Positions 3,677 to 62,971 of a stretch of DNA of 64,000 bases are shown piece after piece. How positions within the stretch are numbered: the first letter of the stretch is position 1; the number at the start of each line of letters is the position of its first letter. The notes beneath the pieces are model-generated. The model did no database searches. It had not been told where the DNA came from and worked only from the letters and a program-made list of their open reading frames with translations. This stretch comes from Escherichia phage SF, in sequence record MH359124. The stretch is one strand, 5' to 3'. The position numbers and the translations under genes are program-made.

Positions 3677-4010
3677 TCTCGATGATTTAAATCTAGAAAT
3701 CGTTGATGAATCCCCTTCTTCGGAAGGGGAAGACATTCGCAAAGAACGAGTGTTTAATGAATCTCTTAAAATTATCCGTTCAGCAATGGAAAATGTCATT
3801 CAAGAGATTCTGATTACGCTTGAAGATGGTTCTCATCATATAGTCTATATTACAAAACTAGACTGGGTTGATGGTAAAATCGTAATGGACTTTGCAGTTC
3901 TTGACCAGGACAGAAAAGCAGAACTTGCACCACATGTTGAAAAATGTGTTACAATGCAAGTACAACAAGCTTTTAATGAACGGACCAAGAAAAAATTTAA
4001 ATTCTTTTAA
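3669..4010 (+). CDS. 40: gp40 head vertex assembly chaperone-like
   Basis: ORF track 3648..4010; likely start at ATG 3669 overlapping the uvsX stop; position between uvsX and 41. Confidence 0.6.
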   Translation: MNNLDDLNLEIVDESPSSEGEDIRKERVFNESLKIIRSAMENVIQEILITLEDGSHHIVYITKLDWVDGKIVMDFAVLDQDRKAELAPHVEKCVTMQVQQAFNERTKKKFKFF

Positions 4011-4019
4011 GGAGTTATC

Positions 4020-5462
4020 GTGGTAGAAATTATTTTGTCTCATCTAGTATATGACCAGGCTTATTTTTCTAAGGTCTGGCCTTATATGGATTCTGAGTAT
4101 TTTGAGCGTGGACCGGCAAAAAACGTCTTTAAAATTATAAAGAGCCACGTTAACGAATATAATGCAATGCCATCTATCAATGCGTTAAAGGTGGCTTTAG
4201 ATAACAGTTCTTTAACTGAAGCCGAATACAAAGGAACTTCAGACCTAATTGAAAAATTGGCTGATACTCCTGAAGACCACGAATGGTTGGTTAAAGAAAC
4301 TGAGAAATATGTCCAGCAAAAAGCGATGTATAATGCTACATCAAAAATCATTGAGATTCAGTCTAATGCTGAACTACCTCCAGAACAACGTAACAAGAAA
4401 ATGCCTGACGTAGGAGCTATTCCTGATATTATGCGTCAAGCACTTTCAATTTCGTTTGATAGTTATGTTGGGCATGACTGGATGGAAGACTACGAAGCAC
4501 GCTGGCTTTCTTATCTGAACAAAGCACGTAAGGTCCCGTTCAAATTAAACATTCTGAATAAAATCACTAAAGGTGGTGCTGAAACTGGTACACTGAATGT
4601 TTTAATGGCTGGTGTTAATGTTGGTAAATCTTTAGGCCTTTGTTCACTTGCTGCAGATTATCTTCAAACAGGTCATAATGTTCTTTATATTTCCATGGAA
4701 ATGGCTGAAGAAGTTTGTGCTAAGCGTATAGATGCAAACATGCTTGACGTATCACTTGATGATATTGATGATGGTAACGTATCTTATGCCGAATATAAAG
4801 CCAAGATGGAAAAATGGCGTTCAAAAACAACATTAGGACGTTTAGTAGTTAAACAGTATCCTACTGGTGGAGCTAATGCTAATACATTCCGTGCATTGCT
4901 TAATGAGTTAAAACTTAAGAAGAACTTTGTGCCATCTGTAATCATGGTTGATTACTTAGGTATTTGCGGGTCTTGTCGTATCAGAGTTTACACTGAAAAT
5001 AGTTACACATTAGTTAAAGCTATCGCAGAAGAACTTCGTGCATTAGCAGTAGAATCTGAAACAGTTCTATGGACTGCAGCTCAAGTAGGACGTGCAGCAT
5101 GGGATGCTTCGGATATGAACATGAGCGATATTGCAGAATCGGCAGGTTTACCAGCAACGGCAGATTTCATGTTGGCCGTAATTGAAACCGAAGAACTTGC
5201 ACAAGCTGAACAACAACTTATCAAACAAATCAAATCACGATATGGTGATAAGAATAAGTGGAATAAATTCCTGATGGGTGTACGTAAAGGCAACCAGAAA
5301 TGGATTGAGATTGAGCAAGAAGGCATGAACACACCTAACACAGTAAATGAAAACGCAGGTGCTCAGATGCGTCAGGCAGAGGTGAATCGTACGGAACGCG
5401 TAGGTAAAGCCAAAGCAACACGTGCTGACCTAGATAGCTTAGCCAACGAGTTAAAATTTTAA
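4020..5462 (+). CDS. 41: gp41 replicative DNA helicase (DnaB-like)
   Basis: 480-aa ORF, GTG start after AAGGAG; N-terminus MVEIILSHL and Walker A GVNVGKS match T4 gp41. Confidence 0.95.
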   Translation: MVEIILSHLVYDQAYFSKVWPYMDSEYFERGPAKNVFKIIKSHVNEYNAMPSINALKVALDNSSLTEAEYKGTSDLIEKLADTPEDHEWLVKETEKYVQQKAMYNATSKIIEIQSNAELPPEQRNKKMPDVGAIPDIMRQALSISFDSYVGHDWMEDYEARWLSYLNKARKVPFKLNILNKITKGGAETGTLNVLMAGVNVGKSLGLCSLAADYLQTGHNVLYISMEMAEEVCAKRIDANMLDVSLDDIDDGNVSYAEYKAKMEKWRSKTTLGRLVVKQYPTGGANANTFRALLNELKLKKNFVPSVIMVDYLGICGSCRIRVYTENSYTLVKAIAEELRALAVESETVLWTAAQVGRAAWDASDMNMSDIAESAGLPATADFMLAVIETEELAQAEQQLIKQIKSRYGDKNKWNKFLMGVRKGNQKWIEIEQEGMNTPNTVNENAGAQMRQAEVNRTERVGKAKATRADLDSLANELKF

Positions 5463-48439: not shown

Positions 48440-49622
<1,183 letters not shown>

Positions 49623-49637
49623 TTATATAGGTGTTAA

Positions 49638-50498
49638 ATGAAACAATATCAAGATTTGATTAAAGATATCTTAGAAAATGGCTATGAAACAGACGACCGT
49701 ACAGGTACCGGCACTATTGCTCTATTCGGAACTAAATTGCGATGGGACCTTACTAAAGGATTTCCTGCAGTAACAACCAAGAAGCTTGCATGGAAAGCTT
49801 GTATTGCCGAGCTATTATGGTTCATGTCTGGTTCTACCAATGTTAATGATTTGCGTATTCGTACTCATGGTAGTCTTATTCAAGGTAAAACTATTTGGGA
49901 CGACAACTATGAAAATCAGGCAAAAGACCTTGGATATCATAGCGGCGAACTTGGTCCTATTTATGGTAAGCAATGGCGTGATTTTGGTGGTGTAGACCAA
50001 TTGGTCAAAACTATTGACCGTATTAAAGCTCTTCCTAATGATCGTCGTCAAATAGTTTCTGCATGGAACCCGGCCGAAATTGACCAAATGGCTCTTCCTC
50101 CTTGTCATATGTTCTATCAATTTAACGTGCGTAATGGGCATCTTGATTTACAATGGTATCAACGCAGTGTAGATGTTTTCTTGGGTCTGCCATTCAACAT
50201 TGCCTCGTACGCTGCCTTGACACATATTGTAGCGAAGATGTGTAACCTTATCCCAGGTGATTTAGTGTTCTCAGGCGGCAACACGCATATCTACAGCAAT
50301 CATGTAGAACAATGCAAAGAAGTTCTTCGTCGTGAACCTAAAGAGTTGTGTTCTCTTGAAATTAATTGGCCTAGTAATTTTGAGAATTGGCCTACAAAAA
50401 TCCAAATGGACTGGGTTACTGGAACGATGACACATTCTGATTTCGTTCTTAAAAATTACGAATCTCATCCAACTATCAAAGCTAAAATGGCGGTATAA
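49638..50498 (+). CDS. td: Thymidylate synthase (intronless)
   Basis: 286-aa uninterrupted ORF near-identical to spliced T4 Td; PPCH active site. Confidence 0.95.
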   Translation: MKQYQDLIKDILENGYETDDRTGTGTIALFGTKLRWDLTKGFPAVTTKKLAWKACIAELLWFMSGSTNVNDLRIRTHGSLIQGKTIWDDNYENQAKDLGYHSGELGPIYGKQWRDFGGVDQLVKTIDRIKALPNDRRQIVSAWNPAEIDQMALPPCHMFYQFNVRNGHLDLQWYQRSVDVFLGLPFNIASYAALTHIVAKMCNLIPGDLVFSGGNTHIYSNHVEQCKEVLRREPKELCSLEINWPSNFENWPTKIQMDWVTGTMTHSDFVLKNYESHPTIKAKMAV

Positions 50499-57711: not shown

Positions 57712-58797
<1,086 letters not shown>

Positions 58798-58798
<1 letters not shown>

Positions 58799-58989
58799 TG
58801 AAACGATTATATGAAGTGATTGAGGCTATCGAACAGCATAAAGAATATTTGTTTGTAGCCTGGCCTTTAGTAAACGGACAGTTCGGTATTGATGTGCTGG
58901 ACTATGAGCATGAAGAACGTTTGGACGGCGGTATATTTGATAACGTTGACCGGGCAATTGAATGGTTAAATGAAAACTATGTACGATAA
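58798..58989 (+). CDS. Hypothetical protein
   Basis: 63-aa ORF. Confidence 0.45.
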
Positions 58990-59194
58990 ACATCATGAAA
59001 TCGAAGATGAAGCATACAAAATGCTTCGTAAACTAGTGGGACTTAATATGAGTTCTACATTAATCAACAAGCTTACTGAAATTCGTAACGACTTGAATAC
59101 TCGTTACAAAGGCGAATATCATATAGAGTTTGTTCCTGTAGGTGAACCGACCGAGCAATTTGTTGTTCGAGTTAAAGTAAATACTGTACACTGA
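58970..59194 (+). CDS. Hypothetical protein
   Basis: 74-aa ORF. Confidence 0.45.
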   Translation: MKTMYDKHHEIEDEAYKMLRKLVGLNMSSTLINKLTEIRNDLNTRYKGEYHIEFVPVGEPTEQFVVRVKVNTVH

Positions 59195-59201
59195 GGTAAT
59201 T

Positions 59202-59477
59202 ATGTTCCCTAAATATTCTGAAATTGTAAAGGTCGTTTTTAGCCAGATTATCGCAAATCATTTCTTTGATAAGCCGGATACGGCCACCGAGCTTAAGATC
59301 CACTCTGAACTACTCTACGTTTTGAATACGCTGGTGCCCGACCAAGTGGATTCTGTGTCTGTTACACTGTTGCCAAGCTCGGCTCATGTGATTGTTGTGT
59401 TTGGACTTGACGCTGATCTAGTAATTCAATGTGAAGTTGATTTCGATTCACAAGAAATTAAATGTTTTGCAATTTAA
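59202..59477 (+). CDS. Hypothetical protein
   Basis: 91-aa ORF. Confidence 0.5.
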   Translation: MFPKYSEIVKVVFSQIIANHFFDKPDTATELKIHSELLYVLNTLVPDQVDSVSVTLLPSSAHVIVVFGLDADLVIQCEVDFDSQEIKCFAI

Positions 59478-59507
59478 GTTTACAACACCGTAGAGTTGTG
59501 ATACTAT
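59478..59507 (+). promoter_or_regulatory. Early promoter (PeSL-like)
   Basis: GTTTAC, 18 nt, TACTAT inside IR GTAGAGTT..AACTCTAC; drives ORF 59536. Confidence 0.65.
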
Positions 59508-59535
59508 AACTCTACCAACAAATGAGGAAATAGAA

Positions 59536-59772
59536 ATGCTAAGTGAAAACCCAATTACAGTACACGAATTTCAGATTAAAGTAAAAGAATTTGCTCAAGC
59601 ACTCATCAATAAAGTGTCTGAACGTTTCCAAGATGCAACATTACGAGTTATTCAAGAATCTCCACGTTCTTTTCTCATAATCGTTAATCCTAAAGATGGT
59701 GACCAAATTACTAATCTTAAATTAGGCAGTGATGGTCTTGTTGAAGCAACTCGAGTATATGGAACACTATAA
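59536..59772 (+). CDS. Hypothetical protein
   Basis: 78-aa ORF with own promoter. Confidence 0.5.
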   Translation: MLSENPITVHEFQIKVKEFAQALINKVSERFQDATLRVIQESPRSFLIIVNPKDGDQITNLKLGSDGLVEATRVYGTL

Positions 59773-59892
59773 TGAGAGCTATCTCATTACTATCGAGAAT
59801 GGTCATAAATCTGAGCACTACCAACTTAGCCTGTCTAATCCGGTTAAAGGTATTGTTGAATCAGAATCTGTTTATATCTCCTAAGGATTGTT

Positions 59893-60885
59893 ATGTTACC
59901 TGTCGTCAGAAAACTTATTTCTCCAAAAGAACTGGCTGAGATTATTCCTTTGTCGGAAGCTTACGCATCACAAGTGGCTTCTCATCGCGAACAAGTTAAT
60001 TCGATTATGAACGGTGAAGACCCACGCAAACTTATTGTTGTAGGTCCTTGTTCAATTCATGACCCTATTGCTGCTGTTGAATACGGCAAACGTCTGGCTG
60101 AACTTCAAACTCGTCTTCCTAATGTTCTGTTAGTGATGCGCGTTTATTTTGAAAAGCCTCGAACTACCGTAGGTTGGAAAGGTCTTGTAAATGATCCATA
60201 TCTTGACGGAAGTTTTGATATGAACCACGGTCTTATAGTTGCACGAACATTGTGTCGTAAACTTCTACGTATGGGACTTCCATTAGCAACTGAAGTATTA
60301 GACCCATTCACGATTAAGTATCTTTCTGGTATTTTCTCATGGGTTGCTATTGGCGCCCGTACGACTGAAAGTCAGACACATCGTGAAATTGCTTCAGGTC
60401 TACCGATGTGCGTAGGCTTCAAGAACGCAACCAATGGTTCTATTAAAGTAGCTACAGACGCGATGTATAGTGCCGCCTGGCCTCATCGGTATATGGGTAT
60501 GGACGTCGATGGTACTGTAGGCATTGTTGAAGCTGAAGGTAATCAGAATACGCATATCGTATTGCGTGGCGGGACTAACGGCCCGAACTATCATTCTTCT
60601 GATATTCAAGAAGCTTCTAACAAAGCAAGTGCATTAGGTCTGAATCATTATGTAATGGTTGACTGTAGCCATGCAAACGCTGATGGGTATTATAGCAATC
60701 AAATTGGTATTGGTAAAAATTTAGCAGCTAATGATTTGGTCAAAGGAATTATGATAGAATCATTCCTACATGAAGGAAATCAAAAAATTTCTGATAATAT
60801 GTCCTATGGCGTTTCCATTACCGATGCGTGCATCAGTTGGGAACAAACTAAAGAGCTGTTAACTTATATTAATAAGGTTCAATAA
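59893..60885 (+). CDS. 3-deoxy-D-arabino-heptulosonate-7-phosphate (DAHP) synthase, class I (AroG/AroF-like)
   Basis: 330-aa ORF; long collinear matches to E. coli AroG from memory (VVGPCSIHDP..A..EY, VMRVYFEKPRTTVGWKGL.NDP, GARTTESQ.HRE.ASGL, HI.LRGG, SITDACI.WE); SD AAGGA. Confidence 0.85.
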   Translation: MLPVVRKLISPKELAEIIPLSEAYASQVASHREQVNSIMNGEDPRKLIVVGPCSIHDPIAAVEYGKRLAELQTRLPNVLLVMRVYFEKPRTTVGWKGLVNDPYLDGSFDMNHGLIVARTLCRKLLRMGLPLATEVLDPFTIKYLSGIFSWVAIGARTTESQTHREIASGLPMCVGFKNATNGSIKVATDAMYSAAWPHRYMGMDVDGTVGIVEAEGNQNTHIVLRGGTNGPNYHSSDIQEASNKASALGLNHYVMVDCSHANADGYYSNQIGIGKNLAANDLVKGIMIESFLHEGNQKISDNMSYGVSITDACISWEQTKELLTYINKVQ

Positions 60886-61466
60886 TGAAAGCTAGCACAT
60901 ATCTTCAAATTGCTTATTTGATTTCTCAAGAATCAAAATGTTGTTCATGGAAAGTTGGTGCCGTCATTGAAAAAGATGGACGCATTATCTCTACTGGATA
61001 TAATGGTTCACCGGCCGGTGGCGTTAACTGTTGTGAACATGCATCTGAAAATGGTTGGTTGAAGAATAAACCAAGCCCGGTCATCGTTGCTGGCCATAAA
61101 GAAGGCACTACAGCATTTGGACGGGTAGATAATTTTGTTTTAGCTAAAGAACATCGGGCCGCTCATAGTGCATGGTCTGCTAATAATGAAATCCATGCAG
61201 AATTGAATGCAATTTTGTTTGCAGCTCGTAAAGGTAATTCTATTGAAGGTGCTACGTTATATACGACGCTTTCTCCGTGTCCTGATTGCACTAAAGCTAT
61301 TACGCAGTCAGGTATTAAAAAGGTTGTATACGCAGAATTATATGATCGATCTCCTGAAAATTGGGCAGACATTCTAAAACAAGCCGGTATTGAAGTAATT
61401 CAGTACTCTCGTAATAATCTTCGTTCTCTGAATTGGGAACAAATCCGAAACTTTTGTGGTGAATAA
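60885..61466 (+). CDS. cd: dCMP deaminase
   Basis: 193-aa ORF; HAE...PCxxC zinc motif; same length as T4 Cd. Confidence 0.9.
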   Translation: MKASTYLQIAYLISQESKCCSWKVGAVIEKDGRIISTGYNGSPAGGVNCCEHASENGWLKNKPSPVIVAGHKEGTTAFGRVDNFVLAKEHRAAHSAWSANNEIHAELNAILFAARKGNSIEGATLYTTLSPCPDCTKAITQSGIKKVVYAELYDRSPENWADILKQAGIEVIQYSRNNLRSLNWEQIRNFCGE

Positions 61467-61764
61467 TATGATTTTAACTGAACAAGAAACTATGGTTCTT
61501 CGTGAACGTATTAAAACTATTCTGTCTGTAGGCGTTCATTGTGTTGTATTTGAAAAGGCTAACGGCGAGGTACGCACTATGTTTGCTTCTCGCGATGAAC
61601 TTGAAGTCAAATATGAAAATAACAATCCAGCAACAGAAGTTCGTTATGAACCTCGTGAATCAGTTCGAGCATTCGACACCAAGTTAGGTCAGTGGCGTTC
61701 TTTCCGCCTTGATAAAGTAATTTCGGTTGATGGTACTCCGGTAGAACGTTTGCTTCTTATGTAA
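61456..61764 (+). CDS. Hypothetical protein
   Basis: 102-aa ORF. Confidence 0.5.
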   Translation: MVNNMILTEQETMVLRERIKTILSVGVHCVVFEKANGEVRTMFASRDELEVKYENNNPATEVRYEPRESVRAFDTKLGQWRSFRLDKVISVDGTPVERLLLM

Positions 61765-61765
61765 T

Positions 61766-61791
61766 ATGCTTTACGAATAGTATGGTATTAT
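61766..61791 (+). promoter_or_regulatory. Middle promoter for gene 31
   Basis: Perfect ATGCTTTA MotA box, 12-nt spacer, -10 TATTAT. Confidence 0.55.
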
Positions 61792-61821
61792 TAATCTATC
61801 GTCAAACAACAAGGAAATAAG

Positions 61822-62154
61822 ATGTCTGAAGTACAACTCCCAATTCGTGCTGTTGGTGAATATGTCATTCTGGTTTCTGAACCCGCTCAAGCAGGTGATG
61901 AAGAAGTTACCGAATCAGGACTTGTGATTGGTAAACGTGTTCAAGGTGAAGTTCCTGAACTATGTGTAGTTCATTCTGTAGGTCCTGATGTTCCTGAAGG
62001 TTTTGTTGAAGTCGGTGATTTGACTCCACTACCAGTTGGACAAATTCGAAATGTTCCGCATCCATTTGTGGCTTTAGGTCTTAAACAACCTAAAGAAATT
62101 AAACAGAAATTCGTAACATGCCACTATAAAGCTATTCCGTGCCTTTATAAGTGA
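61822..62154 (+). CDS. 31: gp31 co-chaperonin (GroES-like)
   Basis: 110-aa ORF; near-identical to T4 gp31 from memory. Confidence 0.9.
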
Positions 62155-62162
62155 TATAAATA
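62155..62162 (+). promoter_or_regulatory. Late promoter (TATAAATA) between 31 and rIII
   Basis: Exact TATAAATA directly after the gene 31 stop. Confidence 0.5.
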
Positions 62163-62278
62163 ACTATATGAAGAGAACACTCTTCTAAGCGGTAGCCTAC
62201 AACTGAGAGACTTGTCGAAAGAAGGTGAAATTCAGACGAACGTGGCTACTAAATATTATCTCGAATTGAGACTTTAAA

Positions 62279-62527
62279 ATGATTAAACAATTACAACACG
62301 CTCTTGAACTGCAACGCAACGCATGGAATAACGGTCATGAAAACTATGGTGCATCCATTGATGTTGAAGCCGAAGCTCTTGAAATCCTGCGTTATTTCAA
62401 ACATCTGAATCCTGCTCAGGCTTCTTTGGCCGCTGAACTGGAAGCTAAAGATGAATTGAAATATGCTAAGCCTCTGGCTTCTGCCGCACGTAAAGCAGTT
62501 CGTCATTTTGTTATTACCCTTAAGTAA
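62279..62527 (+). CDS. rIII: rIII lysis inhibition accessory protein
   Basis: 82-aa ORF, T4 rIII length; synteny after 31. Confidence 0.85.
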   Translation: MIKQLQHALELQRNAWNNGHENYGASIDVEAEALEILRYFKHLNPAQASLAAELEAKDELKYAKPLASAARKAVRHFVITLK

Positions 62528-62791: not shown

Positions 62792-62971
62792 ATGGCAAAA
62801 CAAGCTAAAGCAAAGAAAGCAGTTGAAAAGAAAGTTGATGGTACCTCTAAACGCGCTGGATACAAGCGTGGGTCGAACTCTCGTATTAATCAAACAGTTG
62901 AGAAGATCATGCGCAGAGCACGTGCAGTTCTTCGAGATGATGCTTCTCGTTTTGGAAAGGTTGTTGCATAA
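62792..62971 (+). CDS. Small basic Lys/Arg-rich protein (59 aa)
   Basis: Below the track cutoff; ATG 62792; immediately followed by a strong terminator. Confidence 0.4.
   Translation: MAKQAKAKKAVEKKVDGTSKRAGYKRGSNSRINQTVEKIMRRARAVLRDDASRFGKVVA

Follow-up and report, generated by a model that had tools for sequence, protein, structure and literature searches.

Why does a T4-like phage carry a gene for the shikimate pathway's first enzyme, and does the encoded protein answer to the feedback control that governs such enzymes in bacteria? The question is raised by a 330-aa open reading frame (ORF) with an ATG start in Escherichia phage SF (sequence record MH359124), a T4-like (Mosigvirus) phage of which we analysed a stretch of 64,000 nucleotides, here called the window. 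A reading made from the letters of the sequence (the sequence-only reading) had described the ORF as a full-length class I DAHP synthase (DAHPS) lying between pseT and cd with its own Shine-Dalgarno sequence, and this description was upheld (Table 1). The ORF matched Pfam PF00793 (1.7e-74; 250.6 bits, cut-off 25.5), the NCBIfam aroFGH model TIGR00034 (426 bits, cut-off 173; residues 6-327 against profile positions 9-335 of 342), PRK12755 (454 bits, cut-off 343) and PHROG 5045 (8.6e-182 over residues 1-330), all far beyond chance. The AroG- and AroH-specific NCBIfam models remained under their cut-offs (362 vs 568 and 385 vs 463, respectively), and the best solved structure by sequence was E. 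coli AroF (6agm, 1.5e-104). An AlphaFold2 model (pLDDT 92.1, pTM 0.91) was matched by Foldseek to 1gg1, 1kfl and 4hso with a TM score of 0.96 and an rmsd of 1.4 Å; these structures are E. coli AroG and the Neisseria meningitidis DAH7PS. The type I-alpha additions to the (beta/alpha)8 barrel are present in the model, with N-terminal helices at 11-17 and 22-39 and strands at 198-203, 209-214 and 220-224 that align with the beta6a/beta6b region (AroG 209-223). The first ~9 residues of the I-alpha N-terminal extension are missing, and a longer N-terminus is impossible for the ORF in its frame. By family, the ORF is a full-length type I-alpha DAHP synthase.

Table 1. Features of the DAHPS locus, in coordinates of the window
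Feature	Position	Strand	Basis or remark
Sigma-70-like promoter candidate (GTTTACA, 17 nt spacer, TG-n-TACTAT)	59479..59507	+	Consensus scan
cd.2 homologue (DUF7320, phrog_1504)	59536..59772	+	Pfam 1.5e-35, PHROG 1e-37
41-aa ORF (phrog_15876)	59759..59884	+	PHROG 4.1e-32; covers left junction and leader
Direct repeat, left copy, ATAATGAGAGCTATCTCAT	59769..59787	+	Junction alignment with RB69
1,094-bp cassette (105-bp leader and DAHPS ORF)	59788..60881	+	blastn of window against RB69
Shine-Dalgarno sequence AAGGA	59883..59887	+	5 nt 5' of the DAHPS ATG (sequence)
DAHPS, type I-alpha, 330 aa	59893..60885	+	Profile matches, AlphaFold model, residue alignment
Direct repeat, right copy, ATAATGAAAGCTAGCACAT	60882..60900	+	DAHPS stop codon and genuine cd start
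cd (dCMP deaminase)	60885..61466	+	Pfam PF00383 1.6e-26; phrog_174 8.4e-75

The catalytic residues were compared with those of AroG and followed through the 25 proteins of the phage clade. The metal ligands C53, H260, E289 and D311 are invariant in 25/25; the corresponding AroG ligands are Cys61, His268, Glu302 and Asp326. The PEP residues R83, K88, G154-A155-R156, K177 and R225 (R92, K97, G163-A164-R165, K186 and R234 in AroG numbering) are likewise conserved in every member of the clade. The E4P motif K88-P89-R90-T91 is intact, and its P-R-T is conserved in all 25 proteins. The metal- and PEP-binding residues, which the sequence-only reading had proposed to check against AroG, are all kept, and the active site is 100% conserved across a clade in which identity falls to 56%. 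Because the catalytic residues are intact, the possibility of a pseudo-enzyme was ruled out. The protein would be expected to carry out the metal-dependent reaction of PEP and erythrose-4-phosphate to DAHP and Pi.

In the window, pseT (57899-58798) is followed by four small cd.x homologues, all upstream of DAHPS. The cd.2 homologue, whose orthologue is annotated cd.2 in RB69, lies directly upstream of the cassette that carries DAHPS. The region is hyperplastic and rich in small non-essential ORFs. On the other side, the cd ATG overlaps the DAHPS stop codon by 1 nt (TAATG), and cd is probably translationally coupled to DAHPS. The gene order at the same site in T4 is pseT-cd.5-cd.4-cd.3-cd.2-cd.1-cd, with cd.1 in the DAHPS slot; no DAHPS is present in the syntenic pseT-cd region of T4, in agreement with the sequence-only reading. 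A promoter candidate is situated upstream of the cd.2 homologue. The number of matches in the promoter scan of the region equalled the shuffle expectation, and the candidate is a consensus match only, but the counterpart position in T4 (cd.3/cd.2) bears an annotated early promoter, Pe133295. The candidate is a probable early promoter for cd.2-DAHPS-cd, from which DAHPS would probably be transcribed early.

The window and the RB69 genome are collinear at 95-97%, and the junctions of the cassette are marked by an imperfect direct repeat in which 16/19 bases are identical between the two copies. The left copy is a diverged duplicate of the cd start. The 41-aa ORF across the left junction, called hypothetical in phage PHB12, matches phrog_1504 weakly at positions 41-76; the similarity of its C-terminal part to the cd.2 C-terminus makes it a probable remnant of a second cd.2 3' end. 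The cassette is carried by about 138 Mosigvirus records (gene-only megablast) and is missing from RB69 and 10 other records, or ~7% of Mosigvirus records (empty-site count). DAHPS is dispensable in these phages. It is an accessory gene, probably useful under some conditions and not essential.

The gene is already known. An identical protein (100%) has been deposited for phage PHB12 at the same locus, tblastn returned 211 phage records with a homologue, all full length, and the gene is annotated in about 200 phage genomes. The members of PHROG 5045, from Mosigvirus and related Straboviridae (PHB12, HX01, JS09, phiC120 ORF64 and KLB31), represent this same gene and are annotated as 'phospho-2-dehydro-3-deoxyheptonate aldolase'. 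Two papers list phage DAHPS among the auxiliary metabolic genes (AMGs) to which no function has been assigned. The sequence-only reading had allowed that a database search might reveal a common gene of close relatives, already characterised; common and annotated it proved to be, but an experimental characterisation was not found. Searches of the literature on phage DAHPS found annotation-level mentions only and no biochemical or genetic evidence; earlier reports end at annotation, and an analysis of the regulatory site was not found among them.

NJ bootstraps recovered the phage clade as monophyletic in 200/200 and 100/100 replicates, and the gene lies in one and the same pseT...cd slot in five genera: Mosigvirus, Kanagawavirus, Winklervirus, Marfavirus and Bragavirus. 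The GC3 of the gene (0.29) is like that of neighbouring phage genes, compared to 0.50-0.57 for E. coli aroF/aroG. A recent capture from E. coli was rejected on the basis of 51% identity to AroF, the phage-like GC3 and the age of the clade. By these sequence comparisons, phage DAHPS appears to be of AroF-like bacterial ancestry and to have long resided in one T4-like branch. Could it be a passenger (a moron) that is neutral or decaying and plays no part in infection? Its absence from RB69 and the 10 other records and its hyperplastic surroundings would suit such a gene, as would the comparison with the close Mosigvirus SHSML-52-1, in which 8/10 DAHPS differences are nonsynonymous, a ratio of about 1 on counts too small to be informative. 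However, the gene is intact in 211/211 records, dN/dS between genera is 0.11-0.21, indicating purifying selection, and within Mosigvirus DAHPS is more conserved than its neighbours. With the active site fully conserved and the position kept in five genera, we consider a passenger very unlikely.

The inhibitor site was addressed by an unbiased column scan of the 25 phage-clade proteins against their 98 closest cellular homologues. Only 6/330 columns are fixed differently between the two groups: AroG P150I, Q151K, D155G, S180P, F209Y and T223A, corresponding to I141, K142, G146, P171, Y200 and A214 of the remodelled phage pocket, in which G202 is AroF-type. The canonical inhibitor pocket, made up in AroG of P150, Q151, S180, F209 and N-terminal residues 6-10, is not found in phage DAHPS. 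The new I and K are each fixed in 24/25 members of the clade, the new P and Y in 25/25, and residues equivalent to AroG 1-9 are missing in 25/25. The comparison of this site with AroG and AroF, also suggested by the sequence-only reading, thus found it altered at P150, Q151, S180 and F209. In the alignment, these four of the six separating columns (P150I, Q151K, S180P, F209Y) coincide with published feedback-resistance positions. Feedback-resistant AroG has been obtained from P150L, S180F, F209A/S and changes at Q151, feedback-resistant AroF from Q152I and N8K, and ARO4-Q166K is the standard feedback-resistant allele of yeast. Yeast ARO4 Q166 and phage K142 share one alignment column, and Q151K equals ARO4-Q166K. 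Because the pocket is rebuilt at resistance positions and the N-terminal segment that closes it is missing, phage DAHPS is predicted not to respond to Tyr, Phe or Trp. The earlier proposal that the enzyme bypasses host feedback control gains in-silico support from both features.

Among the 98 closest homologues, Q151, S180 and F209 are invariant, but this does not hold for 150 diverse representatives, in which Q151 occurs in only 82/150 and P at position 180 in 23/150. Since non-canonical pockets are common among these cellular enzymes, as are short N-termini, the remodelling is not phage-specific, and it may pre-date capture by phage. A separate DAHPS, whose catalytic residues are intact and whose non-canonical pocket includes S180P, is encoded by an unrelated Aeromonas phage. 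Convergent evolution in this second phage, HJ05, was considered and downgraded; because cellular lineages show similar pocket patterns, its pocket state may be inherited.

The pocket columns of the phage clade are also more conserved than average, the entropy being 0.43 bits in the pocket and 0.99 bits in an average column (P=0.003 by permutation). The near-invariant new residues are as compatible with a retained pocket function, perhaps for a new ligand, as with a simple loss of regulation. An active DAHPS may have come under allosteric control by a different effector, for example a metabolite reporting the nucleotide or carbon status of the phage. Simple decay of the site predicts drift, whereas the new residues are fixed, and the adjacent cd encodes an enzyme annotated in the T4 record as allosterically controlled by nucleotides. 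Nonetheless, the conservation may be structural, because the pocket positions are also part of the dimer interface and of the path by which the signal reaches the active site. In yeast, the Q-to-K change in the K142 column behaves as a plain loss-of-inhibition allele, and the phage protein lacks the N-terminal segment that would help to enclose a ligand. We judge a new effector to be unlikely.

The role that we favour, and regard as fairly probable, is that of a catalytically competent, deregulated DAHPS sustaining carbon entry into the shikimate/chorismate pathway during infection. In the infected cell, host aro genes can no longer be transcribed and the surviving host isoenzymes are still under feedback control. 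With a deregulated phage enzyme, carbon would continue to flow into the pathway, feeding the aromatic amino acids and the chorismate-derived cofactors. Since the phage encodes only the first of the seven shikimate steps, any benefit would depend on surviving host enzymes.

The effect could instead lie on the substrate side: E4P and PEP would be consumed irreversibly and without regulation, and this sink would re-route central carbon flux, for example by pulling transketolase flux from F6P and G3P towards pentose phosphates (nucleotides) and arabinose-5-phosphate. A precedent is offered by the cyanophage AMGs by which the pentose-phosphate pathway is redirected. DAHPS lies within a nucleotide-metabolism block, coupled to cd, and most of the phages that carry it (Mosigvirus, Winklervirus, Kanagawavirus) encode an arabinose-5-phosphate isomerase that draws on ribulose-5-phosphate. 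However, this co-occurrence is loose, RB69 manages without DAHPS, and draining E4P is not obviously helpful because E4P is an intermediate on the non-oxidative route to ribose-5-phosphate. We consider such a sink, a purely inferential proposal, quite unlikely. Little more credence is given to a reading that links pocket and flux, in which the pocket would have been rebuilt under strong constraint for a new effector or a locked active state, and an unregulated or phage-regulated drain of PEP and E4P would reshape host central carbon. If true, it would be the heterotroph-phage counterpart of the cyanophage pentose-phosphate AMGs.

The sequence-only reading had also raised the idea of a PEP-aldolase repurposed to supply a sugar precursor for DNA hypermodification. 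KDO8P synthase (KdsA) belongs to the same Pfam family, PF00793, and shares the TIM-barrel fold and PEP-aldolase chemistry of phage DAHPS, and carrier phages make arabinose-5-phosphate, the substrate of KDO8PS. Unlike KdsA, the phage protein has the KPRT motif, for which KDO8PS has KANRS, and it also has a Cys among its metal ligands and the decorations of type I-alpha. It matched DAHPS-specific NCBIfam models only, and neither the KDO8PS motif nor the KDO8PS profile was found in it. A KDO8PS-like or otherwise altered substrate was rejected, given the intact E4P-type KPRT motif and the presence of every DAHPS active-site residue. DAHPS does co-occur with the arabinosylation cluster in several genera, but in 57 Acinetobacter phage records the arabinose-5-phosphate isomerase is present and a phage-clade DAHPS is not, and, by organism counts only, the isomerase is missing from most DAHPS-bearing phages of Klebsiella and Proteus. 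The published donor pathway, Ru5P to Ara5P to UDP-Araf, is complete without DAHPS, which the pathway papers never name. RB69 DNA is fully arabinosylated, carrying arabinosyl-5-hydroxycytosine (PMC13326640), and tblastn at E<=1 found no DAHPS homologue genome-wide in RB69. DAHPS is neither required for nor a constant companion of the arabinosyl-5-hydroxycytosine pathway (Afh / RB69 gp45-55). Since RB69 without DAHPS still arabinosylates its DNA, the sugar-precursor idea was discarded as exceedingly improbable.

We are left with a known gene that, from its sequence, probably encodes a deregulated DAHP synthase. As an ordinary gene that has already been catalogued, it owes its value to the observation at the regulatory site and the experiment that this observation suggests. 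The question is unusually tractable because near-isogenic phages exist with and without the 1.1-kb cassette: RB69, JK36, JK42 and moha are without it, and PHB12-like phages carry it. Phage AMGs are well studied in cyanophages and poorly understood in coliphages. If the enzyme is feedback-insensitive, a T4-like phage would be seizing the committed, tightly regulated entry step of aromatic biosynthesis, and phage DAHPS could serve metabolic engineering as a ready-made deregulated enzyme.

Among known systems, E. coli AroF (6agm) shares 51% identity over the full length and all catalytic residues with phage DAHPS, and enterobacterial AroF grouped with it in the first NJ tree. The position of AroF G212 and yeast Aro4 G226 is Gly in the phage protein too. 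Compared to AroF, the phage protein is 9-10 residues shorter at the N-terminus, has two short deletions close to the C-terminus, and carries I, K, P and Y in place of P151, Q152, S181 and F210, respectively; because of these differences, inhibition by Tyr is not expected. A second comparison is with P0153, a bacterial protein encoded on a 530-kb metagenomic contig; in the broad NJ tree it is sister to the phage clade. Like the phage enzyme, it has K at AroG 151, A at 223 and a short N-terminus, but it retains S180 and F209, has an identity of only about 50% to phage DAHPS, and lies at a mean distance of 0.87 from the phage clade, compared to 0.75 for canonical AroF-like proteins. P0153 is cellular and is encoded within a DAHPS-PDT-PDH/CM-aminotransferase operon; since this is an aromatic amino-acid operon, variants with K151 and a short N-terminus do serve aromatic biosynthesis. 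The engineered feedback-resistant alleles, AroG P150L/S180F/F209A, AroF Q152I/N8K and ARO4-Q166K, are altered in the same columns as phage DAHPS. Unlike them, the phage enzyme joins four changes to an N-terminal truncation, naturally and throughout its clade, with a predicted effect of the same kind.

The sequence-only reading had placed a full-length class I DAHP synthase ORF with its own Shine-Dalgarno sequence in the pseT-cd region, and both points were borne out. The ORF (hereafter DAHPS) is preceded by AAGGA 5 nt 5' of its ATG, and the reading frame cannot be carried any further upstream. The protein matched Pfam DAHP_synth_1 (1.7e-74) in a profile search, PRK12755 with a score of 454 (cut-off 343) and the NCBIfam equivalog TIGR00034 aroFGH with 426 bits (cut-off 173), residues 6-327 aligning with positions 9-335 of the 342 in the profile; it scored under the cut-offs of the AroG-specific and AroH-specific NCBIfam models. 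The nearest solved structure by sequence was E. coli AroF (6agm, 1.5e-104), and an AlphaFold2 model (pLDDT 92.1, pTM 0.91) superposed on E. coli AroG and Neisseria meningitidis DAH7PS with a TM of 0.96 and an rmsd of 1.4 Å. DAHPS is preceded by pseT and four small cd.x homologues and followed by cd, 31.1 and 31; its stop codon and the cd ATG overlap (TAATG). T4 lacks DAHPS at the equivalent site, which reads pseT-cd.5-cd.4-cd.3-cd.2-cd.1-cd.

Coordinates of the features discussed (window positions unless another record is named)
Feature	Position	Strand	Remark
DAHPS ORF	59893-60885	+	330 aa, ATG start
Cassette	59788-60881		1,094 bp: 105-bp leader plus DAHPS ORF; extra relative to RB69 134236-134254
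41-aa ORF	59759-59884	+	phrog_15876
55-aa ORF	59772-59939		overlaps the 41-aa ORF
Promoter candidate	59479-59507		sigma-70-like
cd	60885-61466		193 aa
31.1 homologue	61456-61764		WYL_2 / SH3 barrel
30.9-like ORF	62792-62971		59 aa
frd	48691-49278		
115-aa ORF	49275-49622	+	phrog_1928
td	49638-50498		
Predicted arabinosylation segment	1-2400		RB69 26451-24050, reverse
RB69 cd	NC_004928 133742-134251		annotated as 169 aa
DAHPS-like gene of Aeromonas phage HJ05	OQ594355 (L010) 3899-5062		387 aa
Operon headed by P0153	L019 8001-12000		JGI 3300017698 contig

DAHPS is not a new gene, and annotations of it are widespread. The window comes from a Mosigvirus and aligns collinearly with RB69 at 95-97% identity; a deposited protein of Escherichia phage PHB12 is 100% identical to DAHPS. 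A tblastn search found homologues in 211 phage records, every match full length, labelled phospho-2-dehydro-3-deoxyheptonate aldolase, DAHP synthase I alpha or aroF. The protein belongs to PHROG 5045 (8.6e-182; category 'moron, auxiliary metabolic gene and host takeover'), and the phage gene was mentioned by Olsen et al., in the phiC120 genome paper and in a Klebsiella phage paper (Kanagawavirus KLB31). The proviso that it might prove a common gene, already characterised in relatives, was correct as to its being common and annotated but not as to function, since literature searches found no functional study of a phage DAHPS. Some neighbouring genes are likely mis-annotated in deposited relatives: the 31.1 homologue is a 'tail fibers protein' in PHB12 (MK524178), the 30.9-like ORF a '1,4-alpha-glucan branching enzyme', and cd is 'ribD' in several records.

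DAHPS was aligned with E. coli K-12 AroG, AroF and AroH, and then with 24 other proteins of the T4-like phage clade and 98 cellular homologues. The residues that we take, from AroG structures, to be the metal ligands (AroG C61, H268, E302 and D326; window C53, H260, E289 and D311), the PEP-binding residues (R92, K97, G163, A164, R165, K186 and R234) and the E4P-binding residues (P98, R99 and T100) were kept in 25 of 25 phage proteins. This comparison, proposed in the sequence-only reading, leads us to reject a pseudo-enzyme; a change of aldose substrate is disfavoured by the KPRT motif, which is of the E4P type. DAHPS is very probably an active type I-alpha DAHP synthase.

An alternative role, as a PEP-aldolase supplying sugars for DNA modification, did not hold. 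In RB69-type phages, arabinosylated 5-hydroxycytosine takes the place of cytosine (Lee et al., NAR 2026, PMC13326640; Thomas et al. 2018, PMC6024577). RB69 gp51, gp52:53 and gp55 have been assigned the donor pathway Ru5P -> Ara5P -> UDP-Araf, with AfhE and AfhF as counterparts in phage HY126, and neither paper mentions DAHPS or an aldolase (PMC13326640, PMC6024577). In the phage collection, arabinose-5-phosphate isomerase occurred in 57 Acinetobacter phage records without a phage-clade DAHPS, and by organism counts Klebsiella (25 DAHPS records) and Proteus (7) fell outside the isomerase top-ten list (threshold 3 records). With RB69 arabinosylating its DNA without DAHPS, the donor-pathway papers silent and the distribution uncoupled from the isomerase, we rejected a DNA-sugar precursor enzyme as extremely improbable. 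Because the window is collinear with RB69, its first segment should encode gp45 (a kinase), gp46:47 (the arabinosyltransferase) and gp48 (5-hydroxy-dCMP synthase), in which case phage SF would carry cytosine arabinosylation genes.

In RB69, the type Mosigvirus, cd.2 directly adjoins cd, and the complete record (167,560 bp) gave no tblastn match to DAHPS at E<=1, with the cd control scoring normally. The cassette of the window lies between two imperfect 19-bp direct-repeat copies of the cd start (left ATAATGAGAGCTATCTCAT, right ATAATGAAAGCTAGCACAT; 16/19 matching). The 41-aa ORF spans the left junction and shows weak similarity to the C-terminal half of cd.2-family proteins (phrog_1504); from this match it is probably what remains of a second cd.2 3' end after the recombination that introduced the cassette. 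The 55-aa ORF begins in the duplicated cd start (MRAIS versus MKAST) and had no family match. About 138 Mosigvirus records carry the cassette and 11 have the empty site (RB69, two; vB_Eco_mar005P1, five; JK36, JK42, moha and ECO111 5-P), which makes DAHPS an accessory, dispensable gene. RB69 cd is shorter than the window and T4 versions (both 193 aa), its reading frame departing near the C-terminus (...ADILKPSWY, then stop). This is a frameshift or sequencing error, as reported for other RB69 genes (2026 NAR paper, PMC13326640). RB69 also lacks a segment of roughly 350 bp that holds the 115-aa ORF between frd and td, which there adjoin.

The slot is common to five genera, in the order pseT, small ORFs, DAHPS, 0-2 small ORFs, cd, 31: Mosigvirus (PHB12, SHSML-52-1), Kanagawavirus (CIP9), Winklervirus (X20), Marfavirus (MY02) and Bragavirus (phiP4-3). 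Members of the phage clade share 56-98% identity and are 319-343 aa long. The clade was monophyletic in 200/200 NJ bootstraps of a first tree and nested beside enterobacterial AroF; its closest cellular relatives, from several phyla, reached only 50-55% identity. GC3 was 0.29 for DAHPS, 0.16-0.33 for neighbouring phage genes and 0.50-0.57 for E. coli aroF/aroG. Between genera dN/dS was 0.11-0.21, with dS saturated, which together with the full-length state of all 211 matches makes a neutral passenger gene very unlikely. Within Mosigvirus, DAHPS was at least 99% identical in 115/138 records. Against SHSML-52-1, window 57800-62300 showed mosaic identity (3' part of pseT 80.6%, cd.4-cd.2 block 89.5%, DAHPS 99.0%, cd 96.7%), with conservation highest in the cassette; even so, nonsynonymous changes made up 8 of its 10 differences. 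One possibility is a recent recombinational spread or sweep of the cassette.

The proposed comparison of the feedback-inhibitor site with AroG, AroF and AroH revealed an altered pocket. We scanned for columns in which the 98 closest cellular enzymes and the phage clade are each fixed to at least 90%, but for different residues. Six of 330 qualified (AroG P150 to window I141, Q151 to K142, D155 to G146, S180 to P171, F209 to Y200 and T223 to A214), four of them published feedback-resistance positions. Equivalents of AroG residues 1-9 were missing in 25/25 phage proteins, and the stretch ahead of the AroG P19 column had a median length of 10 residues versus 19 in cellular enzymes. The phage-clade pocket columns were conserved above average (0.43 versus 0.99 bits, permutation P=0.003); the site has thus been remodelled and maintained rather than decaying. 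This conservation also favours a rebuilt pocket that binds a new effector, which we regard as unlikely.

We then surveyed a much broader set of 150 type I-alpha enzymes (exhaustive search, 50%-identity cluster representatives). Q151 was present in 82, S180 in 96 (P in 23) and F209 in 114 (Y in 18), and 22 had short N-termini; at most two of the six phage-state residues occurred in any one of the 150, and about a third had a non-canonical inhibitor pocket. In an NJ tree with these representatives the phage clade was monophyletic (100/100), and its sister comprised P0153 (K151, A223, 9-residue N-terminus) and P0230 (G155), although canonical AroF-like proteins were nearer in mean distance (0.75 versus 0.87). 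P0153 is a bacterial DAHPS. Its gene neighbours those of ribosomal protein L19 and TyrRS on a 530-kb contig and heads an operon that also encodes prephenate dehydratase, prephenate dehydrogenase/chorismate mutase and an aminotransferase. Non-canonical pockets thus recur in cellular lineages, and remodelling may have occurred within the phage lineage or already in a bacterial donor. This lowers their uniqueness to phages but does not weaken the predicted loss of Tyr/Phe-type inhibition. Long (600-800-aa) type I-alpha entries such as P0121 and P0123 also occur among the representatives; some, like P0121 (799 aa), have two DAHPS-like stretches, and others are fused to additional domains. The unrelated 79-kb phage HJ05 has a separate DAHPS-like gene (37% identity) that its record labels hypothetical; all its catalytic residues are intact and its pocket is non-canonical (P150A, Q151H, D155P, S180P, F209V), and human-gut 'Bacteriophage sp.' contigs gave matches at about 35% identity.

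A consensus scan placed a promoter candidate before cd.2 (GTTTACA, 17 nt spacer, TG-n-TACTAT), at the position equivalent to the T4 annotated early promoter Pe133295, and found no terminator-like site on the + strand between it and cd. Since the scan matched no more than shuffled sequence, the candidate is only a lead. We propose that an active type I-alpha enzyme, insensitive to Tyr, Phe and Trp, would be expressed early together with cd; with host aro genes silenced and the remaining host isoenzymes still feedback-controlled, it would maintain carbon flow into the shikimate/chorismate pathway. We consider this mechanism as a whole somewhat favoured, and aromatic or chorismate supply has about an even chance of being the selected benefit; a substrate sink re-routing central carbon is improbable. 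Two additions are useful, the analysis of the regulatory site and the natural knockout in RB69, and they make the 'feedback bypass' idea directly testable.

The altered resistance positions and the missing N-terminal segment support that idea, the claim of uniqueness to phages being the part that was lowered, and DAHPS is likely to be free of inhibition by aromatic amino acids. AroG P150L, S180F and F209A/S are feedback-resistant, and Gln151 is implicated (PMC9529685). AroF Q152I, P148L and N8K are likewise resistant (PMC11843938), the N8K position falling inside the segment that the phage proteins lack. Aro4 165-226 corresponds to AroG 150-211 and AroF 151-212 (ungapped match), and the phage change at the AroG Q151 column, Q to K, is identical to that of yeast ARO4-Q166K, a standard feedback-resistant allele (PMC7513737, PMC6512747).
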